From assembly GCA_041651115.1 (NCBI GenBank), contig JBAZJY010000003.1:3188-67187 (forward strand): 64,000 nucleotides of DNA, in the 5' to 3' direction. Shown in pieces: positions 524 to 63,320 of the stretch (position 1 is its first letter; each line of letters opens with the position of its first letter). Position numbers and translations under genes: made by a program. The notes below the pieces were generated by a model. That model was not told the DNA's origin. It ran no database searches and saw nothing but the letters and a program-made list of their open reading frames with translations. This stretch comes from Candidatus Omnitrophota bacterium (GTDB lineage Bacteria > Omnitrophota > Gorgyraeia > Gygaellales > Profunditerraquicolaceae).

Positions 524-1306
524 TTAAGGAAAGATTTTTGTGGGGTAGCCTTCCGCGGAAAGCCTGGCTTCCAATTCCAAAGCCTCTTGCCGGCTGGCCA
601 GCTTGCCTGATCTTACCCGGTAAACCGGCGCTCCCTGTGAAACCGCTTCTTCAATAAAAGCAGAATAGCCGCTGCGTTCCAGCCGGCGAATGAGATTTTC
701 AGCATTAGCCTTGCTGGCAAAAGAGCCCACCTGCACGGAATAATAGAAGTCATTATTTACCAATAAAAAAGCCTCCCAGCCGGGTTCAACATTCAAGGGA
801 AATTCCCGGCTAAGCCGGTCAAGATAATCCTTGGCAGCAGCGGTATTGCCAAGCTTGGCTTCGCATTGGCTTAAACGGGAATAAACAACCGCTTTTAAAT
901 TTAGCGCATCCTGCCCTGCCAACAGCTCAAGATAACCGTTCTTTGCTTTTTGGAAATCTCCCCGGAAAAAATATGTATCGCTAAGCCCCAGCCGCGCCTG
1001 GGGCGCGTAGCGGCTGGACTTAAGCTCATTAATGATTATTTCAAAAATATCCGACGCGCGCAGGAAATTGCCGTCTTTAAGATAGCTCAAACCGAGAATA
1101 TAATACAGCGCGTCCGCGTCTCTGTCGTTTCCTGCGGAGGCAAGCATCTTTTCGCCTCTGGTTATGGCTGCTCTGTAATCGCCGCTCATCAGATCGGCCT
1201 TAAGCGGATCAAGGTCTAATGCGTAAGCGGGCGTAGAAATCATAAATAATAAGAGCGCCAAATATAAAAAAACATTATCATTGCGAGCGAAGCGAAACAA
1301 TCTCAC
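524..1306 (-). CDS. TPR-repeat protein with C-terminal SPOR (peptidoglycan-binding) domain, signal peptide
   Basis: N-terminal hydrophobic signal (LYLALLLFMISTPAYA). Several TPR-like helical repeats. C-terminal YYSVQVGSF..A..L...L...GY..FI......YRVRSG segment is typical of SPOR domains. Confidence 0.65.
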   Translation of the reverse strand: MRLFRFARNDNVFLYLALLLFMISTPAYALDLDPLKADLMSGDYRAAITRGEKMLASAGNDRDADALYYILGLSYLKDGNFLRASDIFEIIINELKSSRYAPQARLGLSDTYFFRGDFQKAKNGYLELLAGQDALNLKAVVYSRLSQCEAKLGNTAAAKDYLDRLSREFPLNVEPGWEAFLLVNNDFYYSVQVGSFASKANAENLIRRLERSGYSAFIEEAVSQGAPVYRVRSGKLASRQEALELEARLSAEGYPTKIFP

Positions 1307-2445
1307 TTTTTCCCTCTTGATATTTTTTTCTGCAGCTCCAGTATCAACGCGTGCCTTCTTTCCTTTTCCTGCTTCGGCACATCATCTCCCAGCTTAAGGC
1401 TTGCGGTATTCGGCCGGGGTGAATATTTAAAGATGTATGCCGTGTCAAAGCCAACGCCCTTTACAAGATTATAGGTATGCTTAAAATCCGCTTCTGTTTC
1501 TGTCGGAAAACCTACGATGATGTCGGTTGTCAACTTAGGGCTATCTACGATTTTACGATAATTATCCGCCAATGCCAAATAGAATTTTGCCGTATAGCCG
1601 CGGTTCATCAATTTAAGTATCTTGTCCGACCCTGACTGCGCCGGAAGATGCAAATATTTTTTCAGCTTATCGCAAGCTGCCATTGCCTTGAATAATTCAA
1701 CGTCCGCGTCTTTCGGATGAGAGGTGATAAAACTGAATTCCTTCAGCCCCGCAATGGAATTAACGCGCTCAAGCAGCTTAATAAAATCAATATTCCCGTC
1801 TTGATAGGCATTAACGTTTTGGCCTAAAAGAGTGACCTTAACAATACCTTTATCCAGCGCAAGTTTTATTTCATCCAGGATATCTGCGTGCTTACGGTGC
1901 CTTAACCTGCCGCGCGTATAAGGCACAACGCAGTAAGAGCAGAAATTCGAGCAGCCTTCTGAAATAACCACAAAGGAATGCTCTTTATCTTCGTAAAAAC
2001 CCGTATGATAAATTTCCTCTGGCCTGTTCCCGCCTTCCGTTTCCCAGATTTTTACCTCATATAGGCTTTTACCTGTCGCCTGACACCTGTCGCCTGACAC
2101 CTTCTTTATGATTCCCGGGATCTTATGAATATCGGATGGCCCAACTACAAAATCCACGGCTGGACAACGCTCGAAAACCCTATCCTGATAATTCTGCGCC
2201 ATGCAACCAATGAGCCCGATAACCGGGATTCCCTGTTTCTTGAACCTTCCGATCTCGCTCCAAACCTTATCCTCGGCATGTTGCCGGACTGCGCAGGTGT
2301 TAAAGATAAGAATATCCGCCTTTTCCGGGACGCCTGCCAGTTGAAAACCGGAATCCTTCAGCAATCCGGCAACCACTTCCGAATCGCGTAGATTCATTTG
2401 ACAGCCAAAACTGCGAAGATAAACCTTTTTCTTATCTTCTTTCAT
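1303..2445 (-). CDS. radical SAM methylthiotransferase, MiaB/RimO/MtaB family (UPF0004 MTTase domain + radical SAM; TRAM domain apparently absent)
   Basis: N-terminal YLRSFGCQMNLRDSEV...NTCAVRQHAEDK (MTTase domain). CSNFCSYC radical SAM CxxxCxxC. 380 aa ends with a 4-nt ATGA overlap onto the next gene, so it is short rather than frameshifted. Adjacent to miaA. Contains an in-frame 2x14-nt repeat insert (VSGDRCQATGKS) at 2071-2103. Confidence 0.75.
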   Translation of the reverse strand: MKEDKKKVYLRSFGCQMNLRDSEVVAGLLKDSGFQLAGVPEKADILIFNTCAVRQHAEDKVWSEIGRFKKQGIPVIGLIGCMAQNYQDRVFERCPAVDFVVGPSDIHKIPGIIKKVSGDRCQATGKSLYEVKIWETEGGNRPEEIYHTGFYEDKEHSFVVISEGCSNFCSYCVVPYTRGRLRHRKHADILDEIKLALDKGIVKVTLLGQNVNAYQDGNIDFIKLLERVNSIAGLKEFSFITSHPKDADVELFKAMAACDKLKKYLHLPAQSGSDKILKLMNRGYTAKFYLALADNYRKIVDSPKLTTDIIVGFPTETEADFKHTYNLVKGVGFDTAYIFKYSPRPNTASLKLGDDVPKQEKERRHALILELQKKISRGKK

Positions 2446-17199: not shown

Positions 17200-17273
17200 T
17201 GGCGGCGAGAGGATTTAAACCTCTGACTTATCGGGTATGAGCCGACTACTCTATCGGGCTGAGTTACGCCGCC
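17200..17273 (-). tRNA. tRNA with CAT anticodon (elongator Met or Ile2/lysidine type). No encoded CCA.
   Basis: Minus strand: GGCGGCG-TA-ACTC-AGCCCGATA-GAGT-A-GTCGG-CTCATAC-CCGAT-AAGTC-AGAGG-TTTAAAT-CCTCT-CGCCGCC-A. It folds as a cloverleaf with a 7/4/5/5 bp stem pattern. The D-loop has GA instead of GG18-19 and the T-loop has U56 instead of C56, an apparent A19-U56 covariation. About 125 nt upstream of tilS in the same orientation. Confidence 0.75.
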
Positions 17274-37159: not shown

Positions 37160-38131
37160 TTAAAAGTCTAACTCCGATTTATGCCCTCTTTTAAATAACT
37201 GAAAACCCAAGCCGGCCACCATTGCCGCGTTATCCATGCATAACTGCCGGGAAGGAAAATGCAGGCTGACCTTGCGGCTTTGCGCATGCAGGGAAAATTT
37301 TTCCCTTAAGTAGCTGTTTGCCGCCACCCCGCCGCCAATCACCAACCGGTTAATTTTTTTCATCCTGCAGGCAAGCAGAGATTTTTCTACCAGCGTATCG
37401 GTTACTGCCTCCTGGAACGAAGCGGCAATATCACAGACAGTTTGCCGACTTAGGGTTTTTTCTGCCTTTACGCGGTAAAGAACCGCGGTTTTTATGCCGC
37501 TGAAACTAAAGTCAAGTTGGCCATGCGTGCCCGAACAACGGAATTTTATCTTTTTAGGGTTGCCTTTTTTTGCCAACTGCTCGATCAACGGGCCGCCGGG
37601 ATAACCCAATCCGAGGAGCTTGGCAATTTTGTCAAATGCTTCTCCGCAGGCGTCATCCTGCGTTGCGCCGAGTGTTTTGATATTGTCAAAATCCTTCACC
37701 AGAAAAAGGCTGGTGTGGCCGCCGGAAACGATCAGGGCAATAAATGGCAGCTGGATCGGTTTCCTGTCCAAGGCACTGGCATAGATATGCGCGTAAATAT
37801 GGTCAACAGCTAAAAGCGGCGCGCCTAAACTAAAAGCTATTGCCTTGGCAAATGATGTCCCCACCAAAAGCGACCCCGGCAAGCCCGGCCCTGCAGTTAC
37901 GCTAACCAGCCCGATATCTTTAAGTTTTATCCCTGCCTCTTCTACTGCCGAATCAACGACCTGGGTTATCGTCTCCAGCTGCATGCGTGAGGCGATCTCC
38001 GGGATAACGCCTCCATACTTGGCGTGAAATTTAATGCTTGAACTGACTACGTTAGAGAGGATGTCTCTGCCGTCTTTTACGATCGCCGCGGATGTTTCAT
38101 CGCAGGACGTCTCAATGCCTAATACGCGCAT
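37160..38131 (-). CDS. tsaD: tRNA N6-adenosine threonylcarbamoyltransferase TsaD (Kae1/YgjD)
   Basis: MRVLGIETSCDETSAAIV...SGGHTSL...GGVAAN. ASKHA fold. 323 aa. Confidence 0.85.
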   Translation of the reverse strand: MRVLGIETSCDETSAAIVKDGRDILSNVVSSSIKFHAKYGGVIPEIASRMQLETITQVVDSAVEEAGIKLKDIGLVSVTAGPGLPGSLLVGTSFAKAIAFSLGAPLLAVDHIYAHIYASALDRKPIQLPFIALIVSGGHTSLFLVKDFDNIKTLGATQDDACGEAFDKIAKLLGLGYPGGPLIEQLAKKGNPKKIKFRCSGTHGQLDFSFSGIKTAVLYRVKAEKTLSRQTVCDIAASFQEAVTDTLVEKSLLACRMKKINRLVIGGGVAANSYLREKFSLHAQSRKVSLHFPSRQLCMDNAAMVAGLGFQLFKRGHKSELDF

Positions 38132-41642: not shown

Positions 41643-43103
41643 TTATAACTTTGGTTTTTGCAAATGCCACGCCGTGCCTTGTTCATAAGCATGGGCCGCG
41701 CGTAAAATGGCCTCTTCGTTAAAAGGCCTGGCCAAGATCTGCAAGCCGACAGGCAGCCCGGCCTTCGTAAAGCCGCATGGTAGGGATATTGCCGGAATAC
41801 CTGCCAGGTTCACGGATATCGTATAGATATCCGACAAATACATACTTAAAGGGTCTTGCGCCTTCTCCCCGATCTTAAACGCCGGAGTAGGTGAAGTAGG
41901 GGTAATAATACAGTCAAAATCAGCGAACACAGCGTCAAAATCCTGTTTGATCAGAGTCCTCACCTTTAATGCGCGTAAATAGTAAGCATCGTAATAGCCG
42001 TGTGAAAGCGCGAATGTTCCCAAAAGAATCCTGCGTTTTGCCTCTTCGCCAAAACCCTGGCCGCGCGTTCTTTTATACATCTCAATCATGCTCTGGCCAT
42101 GCGCAGCAGTATTTTTGGCGCGATAGCCGTATTGCACGCCGTCAAAACGGGCGAGATTAGAGCTCGCCTCGGCAGTGGCAATAATATAATAAACCGGAAC
42201 AGCATATTCGGTATGGGGCAAAGACACCTGCTTGCAAGAAGCGCCCAAACTTTTTAATTTTTCAACTGCTTCTTCAACAATGCTCCTTACTTCCGGGTCC
42301 ATTCCATCAATAAAATATTCTTTAGGCAATGCGATCTTCATTCCCTTAATATCATTGGTCAGCGATCTTGTGTAATCCGGCACCGGCAGGTCGACAGAAG
42401 TAGAATCGTTTGTATCATGGCCGGAAATAACATTCATTAGCAGCGCCGAATCGCGCACATCTTTGGTGATCGGGCCGATCTGATCAAGGCTTGAGGCAAA
42501 TGCGATCAAGCCGTAACGGGAAACCCTGCCGTATGTCGGCTTCAACCCAACCACTCCGCAGAAGGCTGCCGGTTGGCGGATGGAACCGCCGGTATCAGAG
42601 CCTAATGCCATAATTGCTTCATCCGCGGCAATTGCCGCAGCAGATCCACCGGATGAGCCGCCGGGCACGCGCTCCAAATCCCAGGGGTTGCGCGTGGGGC
42701 CAAAACAGGAATTCTCCGTAGATGAACCAAACGCAAATTCATCCATATTTGCCTTGGCAGCTAAAACTACTGCTCCTGCACTTTTAAGTTTTTTTATGAC
42801 TGTCGCATCATAAGGAGGCTTAAATCCGGCAAGGATCTTTGAGCAGCATTCGGTATTCTGGCCGTCGGTGCAGATATTGTCCTTGATGGTAACGGGGATG
42901 CCGCTTAGGTGATAGGTGTCAGGTGTCAGGTGTTGGGCGTCAGGTGATAGGCCCAAGGGATCAGAAAGCCTGACATAGGCCTTAACCTTAGGATCGGTTT
43001 TTTTAATACATCGTTCTAAATCTGCAATAACATCCCGGGAGGTTATTTCTTTTTTCCCTAATTTCCCTAAAAATTCATGCGCAGTTAATCTATTTAGTTC
43101 CAT
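41643..43103 (-). CDS. gatA: Asp-tRNA(Asn)/Glu-tRNA(Gln) amidotransferase subunit A (amidase signature)
   Basis: [13 protein letters not shown] amidase signature. 486 aa. Contains an in-frame heptamer-repeat-derived insert ([13 protein letters not shown]) at 42908-42952. Confidence 0.9.
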
Positions 43104-43152
43104 TATATTCTTTCTAACCTGACACCTAACACCTAAGACCTAACACCTATCA
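43104..43152. repeat. tandem heptanucleotide repeats (mRNA strand GATAGGT GTTAGGT CTTAGGT GTTAGGT GTCAGGT) filling the gatC-gatA junction
   Basis: Five tandem GTYAGGT units on the minus (mRNA) strand between the gatC stop (43150) and the gatA start (43103). Each unit carries an SD-like AGGT(G). Confidence 0.65.
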
Positions 43153-43437
43153 TTCAATGACTTTCGGCACGATGAAAAACGTATCGCGTTTTTCCGGCGC
43201 GTTTGCCAGCGCCTTTTGGCTGGACAGGGAAATCCCCGGATGATCTTGCCGCAATACATTGCTTAACGGAAGGATATGGCTTGTCGCTGCGATATTATCC
43301 GTGTTTACGCCTTTTAGCTTATCAATAAAATCAAGTATACTGCTAAGCTGCCCGGAGATCTTCTCCAATTCCTGCGGCTCAAGCTCAATGCGGCTTAAAT
43401 GCGCGACATATTCAACTATTTCTTTATTTATTGCCAT
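43150..43437 (-). CDS. gatC: Asp-tRNA(Asn)/Glu-tRNA(Gln) amidotransferase subunit C
   Basis: 95 aa. IEYVAHLSRIELEPQELEKISGQLSSILDFIDKL is the typical GatC sequence. Confidence 0.8.
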   Translation of the reverse strand: MAINKEIVEYVAHLSRIELEPQELEKISGQLSSILDFIDKLKGVNTDNIAATSHILPLSNVLRQDHPGISLSSQKALANAPEKRDTFFIVPKVIE

Positions 43438-55359: not shown

Positions 55360-55360
55360 A

Positions 55361-55500
55361 TGGTAATTTTAGGTTAAGTTATTAGGTTAAGGTTAAGAGG
55401 CCAGTATGGTAAATAGGTTAGGGTTAAGTATCAATGGCCTAAACTTAACCCTTAAACCATACCGGCTTCCTGCCCCTAACCCTAACCATAACCTACAGAT
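55361..55500. repeat. ~135-nt imperfect inverted repeat built from telomere-like heptamers (GGTTAAG/GGTTAGG ... CCCTAACC) between cmk and lepA
   Basis: Left arm GGTTAAGTTATTAGGTTAAGGTTAAG...GGTTAGGGTTAAGT. Right arm ACTTAACCCTTAAACC...CCCTAACCCTAACC is its approximate reverse complement. Immediately adjacent to the lepA start codon. Confidence 0.55.
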
Positions 55501-58266: not shown

Positions 58267-59358
58267 TTATGAAATTTTCTTTAACGCCTCCACGAACTTC
58301 CGGTTTTCCTTTTTTGTACCGATGGTTACGCGGATAAAATTCTTTAAGCCGTATTGTTTCATGTCCCTGACAATCACTCCGCGCTTAAGCAGGTCCTTGA
58401 ATACAGCCGAGCCGTCCCTGCCTGTATCAACCAGTATAAAATTGGCTACTGACGGTACAAAGGCAAGCCCCATTTTCTTCAACTCCTCATAAAGGTAATT
58501 CTTACCTTCCAGTACTGCCCTGCGCGATTTCTGCAGGAATTTTTTATCGTCAAGGGCCGCTGCGGCAGCAGCCTGGGCCAAGCTATTCACGTTAAACGGC
58601 TGGCGCGCTTTTTCCATTGCCTGGATCAATTCCTGCTTGGCAACGGCATAACCAACGCGCAAGCCCGCAAGGCCGTAAACCTTAGAGAACGTCTTCAGAA
58701 TAATCACATTCCCGCCGCCAATGTGGCTGATGCTTGAAGGAAAATCATTCACGTCAATGAAAGTCTCATAAGCCTCATCAAGCACGAGTAAAACATCGTC
58801 CGGCAGGCTCTTAAGGAATTCCTGCACTTCATGGCGCGTAATATAGGTACCGGTCGGGTTATTGGGATTGGCGATAAATATTGTCTTTGTTTTCCTGTCA
58901 ATCTTTTTCCTGATCGCTTCAAGGTCAAATTTAAAATATTTCAGCGGCGCGGTGACCACCTTGCGGTTATTTACCTTGGCAATGATCGCGTATTCAAGGA
59001 ACGTGGTATCGGCGGTAACAATGTTCTCATCTTCCTCAACAAAGGTCTTGATGATAATATCGATGATCTCATCCGAGCCGTTACCCAGAAGGATATTTGC
59101 CGGTTTAAGGTTAAGGCAGCGCGCCAGCTTCTTCTTCAGGTAAAATCCTCCGGAATCCGGATAGCGGTTGATCTTACCGAGGCTTTTCCTTATTGCCTCG
59201 ATCGCCTTAGGGGGCGCCCCAAGCGGATTTTCATTAGAAGCAAGCTTGATCACGTCCTTAAGGCCGAACTCGCGCTTTGTCTCTTCAATCGGCTTTCCCG
59301 CGATATACGGAGTTATCTCAGCTATATTTTTTCTTACCAGATCTTTCATCATAATCAC
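58267..59358 (-). CDS. hisC: histidinol-phosphate/aromatic aminotransferase (class II PLP aminotransferase)
   Basis: KLASNENPLGAPPKA...YPD N-terminal motif. PLP-lysine region (TFSKVYGLAGLRVGY). GTG start at 59358 or ATG at 59352/59349. Confidence 0.75.
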   Translation of the reverse strand: MIMMKDLVRKNIAEITPYIAGKPIEETKREFGLKDVIKLASNENPLGAPPKAIEAIRKSLGKINRYPDSGGFYLKKKLARCLNLKPANILLGNGSDEIIDIIIKTFVEEDENIVTADTTFLEYAIIAKVNNRKVVTAPLKYFKFDLEAIRKKIDRKTKTIFIANPNNPTGTYITRHEVQEFLKSLPDDVLLVLDEAYETFIDVNDFPSSISHIGGGNVIILKTFSKVYGLAGLRVGYAVAKQELIQAMEKARQPFNVNSLAQAAAAAALDDKKFLQKSRRAVLEGKNYLYEELKKMGLAFVPSVANFILVDTGRDGSAVFKDLLKRGVIVRDMKQYGLKNFIRVTIGTKKENRKFVEALKKIS

Positions 59359-59386
59359 CTAATGCCTATCACCTAACACCTAATTA
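59355..59386. repeat. tandem heptanucleotide repeats (mRNA strand TTAGGTG TTAGGTG ATAGGCA TTAGGTG AT) at the pheA-hisC junction
   Basis: Same GTYAGGT family as at the gatC-gatA junction. Gives AGGTGAT SD-like motifs 4-8 nt before the hisC start codons. Confidence 0.65.
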
Positions 59387-61717: not shown

Positions 61718-62196
61718 AGCTTAAATTTTATGATATTTGAATGCGCGATTGCCAGCGCCAGGGCATCGGTCACATCCAGGTATTCCGGCAGCTTCTTAAG
61801 ATTAAGCAAATTTGCCACCATTCTCTGGACCTGATACTTTGATGCCATGCCGTTTCCGGCAATTGCTTTTTTTATGCGCGTGGCCGCGTATTCAACTACC
61901 GGCACGCCTGCTTCAGCCGCTGCCAGGTATATTACGCCCCTGGCGTGGCCCAATAAATACGACGTAGTTGGATGATGATAATGCGCAAATAATTTTTCCA
62001 ACACCATCACATCCGGCTTGGTTTCCGAGATAAGGTCGGTTATGCCCCGGAATATTTTGCTTAAACGCTGCGATAAAAGCTGCTTGGCAGAAGTCTTGAT
62101 GATGCCTGCTTCAAGCAGCTGCGGGCTGCTACGCTGGAAATCCACAATGCCGTAGCCGGTGATTGTCAGCGCCGGGTCAACCCCTAATATCCTCAT
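61714..62196 (-). CDS. ruvC: Holliday junction resolvase RuvC
   Basis: MRILGVDPALTITGYGIV catalytic Asp motif. 160 aa. Confidence 0.85.
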   Translation of the reverse strand: MRILGVDPALTITGYGIVDFQRSSPQLLEAGIIKTSAKQLLSQRLSKIFRGITDLISETKPDVMVLEKLFAHYHHPTTSYLLGHARGVIYLAAAEAGVPVVEYAATRIKKAIAGNGMASKYQVQRMVANLLNLKKLPEYLDVTDALALAIAHSNIIKFKL

Positions 62197-62954
62197 TCTT
62201 CAGATGACGCAGCGATCTGCTCCATTATCTCATCCGGTATGTCAAAATTAGCATAGACCTGTTGGACATCATCATGCTCTTCCAGCGCGTCAATAAGCGT
62301 TAATACCTGCTTCGCTTCATTACCCGCGACCTTCACGCTTGAAGAAGGTATCATCGTCAGTTCTGCGTCCTGCCACTTTATGCCTTTATCCTGTATCGCC
62401 TTTTTTACATTTTCCAGGTCCTGCACGGCGGTAGTGATTTCATAATTCTTATCATCGGATTTGAAATCCTCTGCGCCTGCTTCAAGGGCGATATTCATCA
62501 GTTCGTCCTCTTTAGCCTGCGATTTCTCAATCAGGATATAACCTTTCTTGGCAAACATCCAGCTTACCGCGCCGGCGCCTGCCATATTCGCGCCTTTTTT
62601 GGACATTATGTTACGGATCTCCGCGGTGGTGCGATTCTTGTTATCGGTCAGCGCCTCGATCAATATTGCCACGCCGCCCGGGCCATAGGCTTCATACATA
62701 ACTGTCTCGTATACAACGCCGGGAAGCTCGCCGGTACCGCGCTTAATCGCCATTTTAACGTTGTCATTGGGCATATTAGCTTCTTTTGCCTTTTGCATGA
62801 CTGCGCGTAATTTAGGATTGGTATCGGGGTTACCGCCGCCTTCACGGGCAAGCACGGTAAGCTCTTTAATGATCTTCGTATAGGTTGCCCCTTTTTTGGC
62901 GTCAGCCGCCATTTTTTTACCCTTATTTGTTTTCCATTTAGAGTGACCTGACAT
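62193..62954 (-). CDS. yebC: YebC/PmpR family DNA-binding transcriptional regulator
   Basis: MSGHSKWKTNKGKK...AKKGATYTKIIKEL is the YebC signature. AGGAGG SD upstream. Confidence 0.85.
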   Translation of the reverse strand: MSGHSKWKTNKGKKMAADAKKGATYTKIIKELTVLAREGGGNPDTNPKLRAVMQKAKEANMPNDNVKMAIKRGTGELPGVVYETVMYEAYGPGGVAILIEALTDNKNRTTAEIRNIMSKKGANMAGAGAVSWMFAKKGYILIEKSQAKEDELMNIALEAGAEDFKSDDKNYEITTAVQDLENVKKAIQDKGIKWQDAELTMIPSSSVKVAGNEAKQVLTLIDALEEHDDVQQVYANFDIPDEIMEQIAASSEE

Positions 62955-62989
62955 CTGTTCCTCCTATTTTTTGTTTTTAATTAATAGAC

Positions 62990-63320
62990 AAGCAGGATAA
63001 GCCGGGTTCTGTGTGGGATGCGAATATCCGCTTCCTAAAGTGGCCATTCCTCTAAACCCCGGCGTTGCCGCCGGGATCAAGCAGCCTACCCGAGACTATT
63101 AACGGAGAGGCACTCCTCGTCTCTTATTCGGCCTTGCTCCTCGTAGAGATTGCTCGTTTCACCCCCGCCGTTTTGAGGCGGCGGGACTCGTCTCTGTAGC
63201 TCTGATCCTCACCCCGGCAATACTGCCTGAGCGGACGGGTGTTACCCGCTACGGTGCCTTCTGGAGCCCGGACTTTCCTCCCCCGCAGCTTAAACTGCGG
63301 GGGCAGCCACATCCTGCCTG
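62990..63320 (-). ncRNA. rnpB: RNase P RNA (bacterial type A)
   Basis: Minus strand contains GGAAAGTCCGGGCTCC (P4 5' strand), a P3 hairpin CCCGCAG..CTGCGGG, GGGTAGGCTGCTTGA and 3' ACAGAACCCGGCTTATC. The P1 strands GCAGGAT/ATCCTGC pair. The ORF 63124..63312 in the track is therefore spurious. Confidence 0.8.

Follow-up and report, generated by a model that had tools for sequence, protein, structure and literature searches.

Heptanucleotide repeat arrays at operon junctions of an Omnitrophota bacterium, with a predicted stem between the gatC-gatA spacer and the gatA coding sequence

Two short operon-internal spacers, gatC-gatA and pheA-hisC, in a 64,000-nt stretch of contig JBAZJY010000003.1 from a Candidatus Omnitrophota bacterium (the whole stretch is called the window here) are filled with tandem heptamers of the form WYAGGYG, the reverse complement of which is CRCCTRW. 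An initial annotation of this DNA had described both tracts as stacks of Shine-Dalgarno (SD)-like sites serving translational re-initiation. The tracts are heptanucleotide simple sequence repeat (SSR) arrays, of a type frequent in Omnitrophota genomes. On the evidence of predicted folds and of orthologous junctions, the gatC-gatA tract is better explained as one arm of a long hairpin that has its other arm within the gatA reading frame; a stack of ribosome-binding sites explains it less well. The descriptive part of this account, comprising the repeat class, the inverted pair, its recent gain and an expansion at hisC, is held with high confidence. A function of the gatC-gatA stem in translational coupling is put forward tentatively, and the statement as a whole we regard as evenly balanced.

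Heptamer arrays in two spacers and two genes

The genes bordering the two spacers were correctly named at the outset, as judged by their Pfam domains and by the match of GatA to its S. aureus counterpart:

41643..43103, minus strand: gatA, open reading frame (ORF) of 486 aa, 100% identical to an NCBI Omnitrophota GatA; E 4e-164 to S. aureus GatA (PDB 2df4_A)
43150..43437, minus strand: gatC, ORF of 95 aa, Pfam GatC (PF02686)
58267..59352, minus strand: hisC, 361 aa from the first ATG, PF00155; protein P0121 is 100% identical over 361 aa
59384..60445, minus strand: pheA, chorismate mutase / prephenate dehydratase, ORF with CM_2, PDT and ACT domains (Pfam, from the orthologous gene and the same contig)

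Four WYAGGYG arrays occur in the window, one in each of the two spacers and one each inside gatA and a MiaB-like gene, so that half of them lie within coding sequence, one of these being antisense. They were delimited by direct reading, Tandem Repeats Finder (TRF), a period-7 scan and translation:

42905..42951, minus strand: array A, seven units, CCTATCA CCTGACG CCCAACA CCTGACA CCTGACA CCTATCA CCTAA (mRNA), in frame in gatA, 6.7 copies (TRF and translation)
43116..43152, minus strand: array B, five units, ATAGGTG TTAGGTC TTAGGTG TTAGGTG TCAGGTT, filling the gatC-gatA spacer and overlapping the gatC stop codon (direct reading, TRF and period-7 scan)
59356..59383, minus strand: array C, four units, TTAGGTG TTAGGTG ATAGGCA TTAGGTG, filling the pheA-hisC spacer (TRF)
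2071..2102, minus strand: array D, 4.6 units, AGGTG TCAGGCG ACAGGTG TCAGGCG ACAGGT, in frame and in sense within a MiaB/RimO-like ORF at 1303..2445

The tandem heptamers first reported at the two junctions are present there and are not random. A two-unit degenerate pattern, YAGGYGNYAGGYG, with at most one mismatch, matches the window 19 times, compared with 2.64 +/- 1.62 in shuffled sequence, and none of 100 shuffles reaches 19. With 4-6.7 copies by TRF, the window arrays qualify as heptanucleotide long SSRs, that is, head-to-tail repeats with a unit of 5-11 nt that are longer than expected by chance. The gatC-gatA spacer (43104-43149) is 46 nt long, as originally measured, and reads on the mRNA strand tgATAGGTG TTAGGTC TTAGGTG TTAGGTG TCAGGTT AGAAAGAATATA ATG, where TGA is the gatC stop codon (4.7 copies, 88% match by TRF). 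The 31-nt pheA-hisC spacer (59353-59383) reads TTAGGTG TTAGGTG ATAGGCA TTAGGTG ATT ATGATG. The description of every unit as carrying AGGTG needs correction, as three of the five units at gatC-gatA and three of the four at pheA-hisC do so. Array A encodes GatA residues from about 50 to 67 in the orientation opposite to array B, and its mRNA includes AUCACCU, a string found also in the generic 16S 3' tail. Array D encodes VSGDRCQATG, located in the linker between the UPF0004 and radical-SAM domains. A further 13 kb of the same contig holds no additional WYAGGYG array, which gives four arrays per about 77 kb.

Three assemblies from two samples (one from ENA, one from Logan built on another run, and the NCBI record) agree at 100% identity over the gatC-gatA region, which rules out an assembly artefact; the ORFs are also unbroken, and comparable arrays occur in dozens of unrelated metagenome-assembled genomes (MAGs) and in one single-amplified genome. 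A weak period-7 array, AAAGGCG ATACAGG ATAAAGG CATAAAG, at 62376-62403 inside a YebC/TACO1-like ORF (62193..62954), is probably due to chance.

A long-range stem predicted between spacer and gatA

An inverted-repeat search of the window pairs arms of 36 nt at 42910-42945 and 43117-43152, with 86% complementarity and a separation of 171 nt, making array B the 5' arm and array A the 3' arm of a predicted long-range stem. The minimum free energy (MFE) of the 281-nt mRNA segment is -96.7 kcal/mol, compared with -64.2 +/- 4.8 kcal/mol for dinucleotide shuffles (z -6.8), and none of 200 shuffles folds as low. In the MFE structure a stem of 15+9+10 bp (34 bp) starts directly after the gatC stop codon and takes up all of array B. 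In this species, the SD-like strand is thus predicted to be paired in cis with an anti-SD-like strand made of AUCACCU repeats. An invertible DNA segment was considered as the basis of the inverted arms and rejected, as the intervening stretch carries the start of gatA, an essential gene, together with 50 of its codons.

Covariation of the two arms across species

In 120 Omnitrophota GatA homologues (73-81% identity), the segment following KAYVRLS is hypervariable, often with a peptide periodicity of seven or eight residues. The DNA of 80 metagenome loci (loci are cited here by L numbers) reveals that many species have tandem 7- or 8-mers at exactly the position of array A, and in every case the C/A-rich strand is the sense strand. 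These intragenic arrays have species-specific units, among them CAACACC, CGAACAC, CCTACAA, ACTYATA, GAACTTAC, GAACTCAA, CGAGAACC, ACGAACT and CCAATAC. In a subset of species, which counts at least six relatives, a G/T-rich array fills the gatC-gatA spacer and is the reverse complement of that species' own intragenic unit; the majority of these spacer units do not resemble an SD sequence. The spacer unit is TAGGTNT in the window, L087, L089 and L118, TATRAGT in L091, and the 8-mer TAAGTTC in L093 and L098. At all seven of these loci, spacer and intragenic arrays pair in the full-context MFE structure over 19-31 bp each. The three unit classes are altered on both arms together, and duplex energies within a locus are far better than those obtained by combining arms from different loci (permutation p 0.00045).

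Spacer and intragenic arrays also tend to occur together across junctions (Fisher p 0.014), and junctions lacking the intragenic array mostly measure 0-2 nt. The orthologous spacer units in L091 (TATRAGT), L093 and L098 (TAAGTTC) and L107 (CAYRGTT) contain no AGG, which argues against the spacer arrays being kept as ribosome-binding sites; it is complementarity that these junctions conserve, and not likeness to an SD sequence. In the closest relatives, gatC and gatA overlap (L169 and P0003) or are separated by a 3-nt spacer (L170; core identity 87% for L169 and L170), so that L169 and L170 lack the array altogether in the comparison of unit number at orthologous junctions that the initial annotation had proposed. 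The 46-nt spacer array of the window is therefore a recent gain.

A second hot spot of in-frame heptamer arrays, again with species-specific units, lies about 975-1010 nt into gatA in many relatives. The gatA gene of the window has no array at this site, where residues from about 326 to 340 are merely variable.

Second gatA hot spot: L083 1163-1194, L084 1362-1388, L087 1579-1610, L089 6983-7014, L093 4138-4167
Second gatA hot spot, further loci: L126 6973-7002, L129 1525-1554, L167 19373-19401, L169 4983-5005

Copy number at the pheA-hisC spacer

HisC is 85-88% identical in the two closest relatives, in which the 13-nt pheA-hisC spacer contains one unit, TTAGGCGGTCGTG-ATG and TAGGTAAAAAAAT-ATG, respectively. 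The four units of the window are therefore an expansion of an ancestral SD-like unit. Unit number at this junction ranges from four in the window through one in each of L163 and L164 to zero in both L165 and L167, a pattern that fits the slippage-prone tract offered at the outset as an alternative to ribosome standby sites. A more distant relative has a canonical GGGAGAGG in this spacer, and in another the spacer is 3 nt long.

Folding predicts no structure for the pheA-hisC leader (z +0.99), which leaves array C unpaired. The last unit of the array, AGGTGATT-ATG, pairs with the anti-SD at -10.1 kcal/mol, as calculated with the generic tail GAUCACCUCCUUU, since the 16S gene of the host lies outside the window. 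This unit ends 3 nt before the ATG, and the string AGG-TGATT-ATG gives an aligned spacing of about 5 nt. A reading of the arrays as SD sequences is plausible for pheA-hisC only, where, on the predicted pairing and spacing, at minimum the last unit of array C appears to be the SD of hisC.

Distribution of arrays in gatA-centred loci

A wider survey of related loci, centred on gatA and totalling 1.84 Mb, returned 123 non-redundant arrays of 7/8-mers. When tandem arrays of at least three copies are counted by period in 1.9 Mb of fetched loci, period 7 dominates with 118, compared with 28 for period 6 and 31 for period 8. A reverse-complement partner lies within 300 nt of 39 of the 123 arrays and a direct partner near only four, compared with two inverted and five direct partners in a random-flank control. 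Inverted partners outnumber direct ones ten to one, and ordinary duplication is therefore not their source. Units vary between loci within single genomes of relatives (for example, L051, L087 and L093), so the arrays are made locally and are not copies of one mobile element.

Arrays of this type are enriched in non-coding DNA, which accounts for 7.3% of bases and holds 58 of the 123 arrays, in support of the initial annotation; the family is nevertheless not restricted to junctions, two of the window's own arrays lying in genes. The orientation of the 39 start-proximal arrays is unbiased (17 G/T-rich, 15 C/A-rich). Inside genes, the C/A-rich strand is sense 47 times and antisense 12 times, a bias that we infer to stem from C/A-rich heptamers encoding Pro, Thr, Asn, Gln and His. 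Omnitrophota-type loci carry 68-112 arrays per Mb, compared with 30 per Mb for the remaining phyla of the sample, a comparison biased by the choice of gatA-centred loci.

Folded examples in relatives are hairpins with arms made of tandem repeats, situated between a stop codon and the next start, several of them at the gatA-gatB junction. A spacer hairpin of the window has the same architecture as these:

55360..55492, minus strand: cmk-lepA spacer hairpin of about 125 nt (TRF), with hexamer arms GGTTAG/GGTTAA and CTTAAC/CCTAAC, fold -61.9 kcal/mol, z -5.4

Repeat-armed hairpins are often found at the gatA-gatB junction in relatives (L030 5204-5263, L051 11490-11569, L071 1475-1605, L093 4619-4691), and solitary arrays occur there in L087 (2092-2126), L124 (7433-7468) and L134 (7490-7524). 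In the window this junction measures 3 nt only. Some 5 kb downstream of gatA, relatives have an ORF of ~990 nt, probably tsaD by its position and length, with an in-frame hot spot of 7/8-mers about 660-720 nt from its beginning; tsaD of the window (37160-38131) has no array.

Probable tsaD arrays: L086 6502-6532, L100 10156-10185, L119 11907-11940, L123 11670-11698, L126 11634-11660, L130 11783-11811

Conserved housekeeping genes, namely gatA at two sites and tsaD, thus contain recurrent hot spots for in-frame 7-nt arrays, which is unexpected because a slip of one unit would shift the reading frame. In a Terriglobia MAG, L073 16384-16690 is a near-perfect hairpin of ~300 nt (-184 kcal/mol) with octamer-repeat outer arms, located in a called ORF of 175 aa that is probably spurious.

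An Rfam 15 scan of the window at gathering score assigned no RNA family to any of its arrays; the sole matches at that score are an RNase P RNA (bacterial class A, 195 bits) at 62985-63320 and one tRNA at 17200-17273, both on the minus strand. An AlphaFold2 model of GatA built on a 30-sequence alignment has a mean predicted local distance difference test (pLDDT) score of 51, which makes it unusable, and it was not interpreted.

A model for the gatC-gatA junction and its rivals

The explanation that we favor runs as follows. Arrays grow locally, probably by replication slippage, and persist only where they are tolerated, in short operon-internal spacers or in frame in protein linkers and loops, and they are very often found as inverted pairs with arms able to base-pair. 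The ancestral gatC-gatA junction was overlapping or 0-3 nt long, and it has recently taken up an array that is complementary, in inverted order, to an older one lying in frame 150 nt into gatA. The predicted 34-bp stem, running from the gatC stop codon, would bury the spacer with its AGGUG motifs and place the gatA AUG where a 170-nt loop begins. Free ribosomes would then be unable to load on the buried spacer, initiation at gatA would hinge on ribosomes that finish gatC and open the stem, and coupling through the stem may stand in for the lost stop/start overlap. At pheA-hisC, a single ancestral SD-like unit has expanded four-fold into an array predicted to be unpaired, the last unit of which would serve as the hisC SD.

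Several observations weigh against a coupling stem. Arrays C and D have no complementary partner in the inverted-repeat search of the window. In L107 and L137, both the spacer and the intragenic array are present and yet are not complementary, and in many species (L083, L092, L100, L117, L126, L130 and L085) the intragenic array occurs without a spacer array. G-U asymmetry was tested as a sign of selection on RNA, and at none of the eight loci do duplex energies or G-U counts differ much between sense and antisense (-56.7 vs -50.4 kcal/mol for the window arms). Pairing of comparable energy in both senses therefore provides no pointer to RNA over DNA pairing, or to selection over hairpin-templated correction. 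Any ribosome translating gatA has to pass the 3' arm, and RNase III could cut the stem inside the gatA coding sequence. The recency of the spacer array was judged on a tree built by the unweighted pair group method with arithmetic mean (UPGMA), which has low resolution except for the nearest neighbors of the window.

Whatever its function, the locus provides a concrete structure, a predicted 34-bp stem joining a spacer array with an in-frame array of an essential gene, and a natural case of covariation across uncultured Omnitrophota in which unit sequence, and even period, shifts on both arms. A stem acting in the proposed way would account for the uptake of a repeat insertion by a tightly coupled junction without uncoupling the synthesis of GatCAB subunits; if it has no such role, the locus is still a clean case of inverted arrays arising and staying complementary. 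A bolder extension, which we consider unlikely, is that Omnitrophota and some other lineages use self-extending, repeat-armed hairpins as a general operon-junction device, one arm being drawn, in cases such as gatC-gatA, from an in-frame array of an essential gene, so that the gatA coding sequence would double as the anti-SD arm of a switch for translational coupling and the arms would co-evolve by unit turnover. Were this so, heptamer arrays in coding regions would be kept for RNA pairing and not merely tolerated.

The main rival, a possible but somewhat unlikely one in our estimation, is that the arrays are neutral by-products: slippage junk tolerated in spacers and loops, whose partners arise and stay complementary by intrastrand template switching (quasi-palindrome correction), the hairpin having no regulatory role. 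This rival stays viable because pairing shows no sense/antisense asymmetry and many arrays are without a partner. The dominance of period 7, independent of unit sequence, fits the polymerase-slippage idea of Mrazek et al. 2007 as summarized in PMC4679880. The differing units at separate loci of one genome, the coming and going of arrays among close relatives, and the position of intragenic arrays in variable regions (the two gatA hot spots, one in tsaD, and the MiaB linker) would all be expected of such by-products as well. Less easily accommodated are the ten-to-one excess of inverted over direct partners and the appearance of spacer arrays specifically where an intragenic array exists, in place of a tightly coupled junction. 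Some effect would also be expected of 46 nt inserted between coupled cistrons that encode subunits of a 1:1:1 enzyme.

That the arrays hold 30S subunits as tandem SD or standby sites for re-initiation at the downstream cistron, as the initial annotation had it, is quite unlikely as a general account. AGGTG(A) has its complement in the generic 16S 3' tail, SD sequences such as AAAGGAGGTGGAGG-ATG and TAGGAGGAACAG-ATG are in use in this organism, and at hisC the unpaired array, its well-placed last unit and the single SD-like unit in relatives make such a role plausible. At gatA, the proposal is poorly supported. The ideal start-codon distance claimed for both genes holds for hisC but not for gatA, where the last AGG lies 14 nt and the last full AGGTG about 19 nt from the ATG, and where pairing of the anti-SD with the 22 nt ahead of the start reaches just -3.7 kcal/mol. 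The array here is moreover predicted to be fully base-paired with array A. Across the 39 start-proximal arrays of the survey, relaxed SD-like cores are seen in 12 in sense and four in antisense, but strict cores (GGAG, GAGG or AGGA) are confined to two, there is no bias of orientation, and the same units recur inside coding sequence in both orientations.

The two remaining models are less likely than those above. Recognition of the periodic units by an oligomeric DNA- or RNA-binding regulator, which we consider very unlikely, could draw on the single unit shared by the four arrays in about 77 kb and on array B, which reads UAG-N4 four times and which we take to resemble a HutP-type motif. Because the unit varies between loci within one relative's genome (L051, L087, L093), a single sequence-specific factor is disfavored; orthologous arrays change sequence freely, and no candidate binding protein was identified. 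Published analogues in Geobacter metallireducens and in Beggiatoaceae (TAACTGA) have nevertheless been read as protein-binding sites. A phase-variable contingency locus, in which unit gain or loss switches gatA or hisC expression, or the gatA frame, within populations, is highly improbable: the repeats are of the slipping type and unit number differs between species at pheA-hisC, but slippage is lowered by the imperfect units, both genes have housekeeping roles, a slip of 7 nt within gatA would put it out of frame, and the three assemblies are 100% identical across the locus, a comparison of little power as they show no single nucleotide polymorphisms (SNPs) anywhere, just as the near-identical locus pairs available for strain comparison of copy number differ by 0-3 SNPs only and have no power.

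Two known classes of element were rejected. G-quadruplexes of the GGGNATC type (at least four runs of at least three G) do not apply, as the units carry GG runs only and many orthologous units have no GG. Repetitive extragenic palindromes and bacterial interspersed mosaic elements (REP/BIME) do not fit, in that hairpins in relatives each have their own unit and no gene resembling a REP-associated tyrosine transposase (RAYT) is found among the Pfam matches of the window region.

Relation to described repeat systems

Long-range mRNA stems that sequester an SD sequence can couple adjacent cistrons, as in RNA phage MS2, where opening of the replicase start depends on coat. The gatC-gatA junction would resemble this type of coupling in that the initiation region of the downstream cistron would be paired with a complementary segment at a distance, and upstream translation would be needed to open it. 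It differs in that the arms are tandem repeats and the 3' arm lies inside the regulated gene, and in being a predicted stem only.

No paper on heptamer repeats in Omnitrophota came up in a literature search. Arrays of heptanucleotides adjoining start codons are known from a few bacteria, without an established role, and the Omnitrophota feature belongs to this known and poorly understood repeat class. Direct repeats of TAACTGA form arrays of 2-6 units in marine Beggiatoaceae and also in some cyanobacteria and Bacteroidetes (MacGregor 2015, PMC4679880). They are forward before start codons and 'reverse', in frame, at tolerant positions of ORFs, usually without an adjacent canonical SD, and a role in translation has been proposed (PMC4679880). 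The layout in the window is similar, with arrays B and C forward in spacers (array B overlapping the gatC stop) and array A reversed in frame; array D, forward in frame, is an exception. The unit differs, WYAGGYG being SD-like and TAACTGA not, as does the phylum. In addition, BOGUAY has one genome-wide unit and only one indirect repeat (PMC4679880), whereas Omnitrophota loci have frequent inverted pairs and locus-specific units.

Paired sites are known from G. metallireducens, where class 3 elements consist of five tandem heptamers, MTYCTGA, with eight pairs on opposite strands, one of them between proB and proA (Aklujkar et al. 2009, PMC2700814). The same genome has class 2 elements of 3 x TCTCCGTS(Y) and 49 copies of 4 x GGGACCG, and the paired sites were read as binding sites of global regulators like integration host factor (IHF) or HU (PMC2700814). 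Class 3 shares with the Omnitrophota arrays a number of about five heptamers, opposite-strand pairs at variable distance, and operon-internal and intragenic positions. The array A/B pair conforms to class 3 pairing, and arrays C and D, having no partner, do not. CACCTGA matches MTYCTGA at five of seven positions, the window unit CACCTGA/CACCTAA differing at position 2. The class 3 consensus is genome-wide, unlike the units of the relatives examined here, which differ between loci; neither an arm in essential coding sequence nor cross-species covariation is reported for G. metallireducens (PMC2700814).

Among the long SSRs of prokaryotes, with units of 5-11 nt, heptamers are the commonest class (Mrazek et al. 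2007, as summarized in PMC4679880). Heptamer repeats of cyanobacteria belong here, as do the GGGNATC repeats of Xanthomonas and Nostoc, which are G-quadruplex formers (Rehm et al. 2015, PMC4692102). The Omnitrophota arrays share with prokaryotic long SSRs an excess in non-coding DNA between co-oriented ORFs, a typical number of about four units and a variable copy number (PMC4679880, PMC4692102). Inverted pairing and in-frame arrays in housekeeping enzymes are not described for long SSRs or GGGNATC repeats. Compared with all of these systems, the features that appear to be new are the occurrence of an SD-like unit in Omnitrophota, the location of one arm within an essential gene together with units that covary across species, and the recurrent in-frame hot spots in gatA and tsaD.

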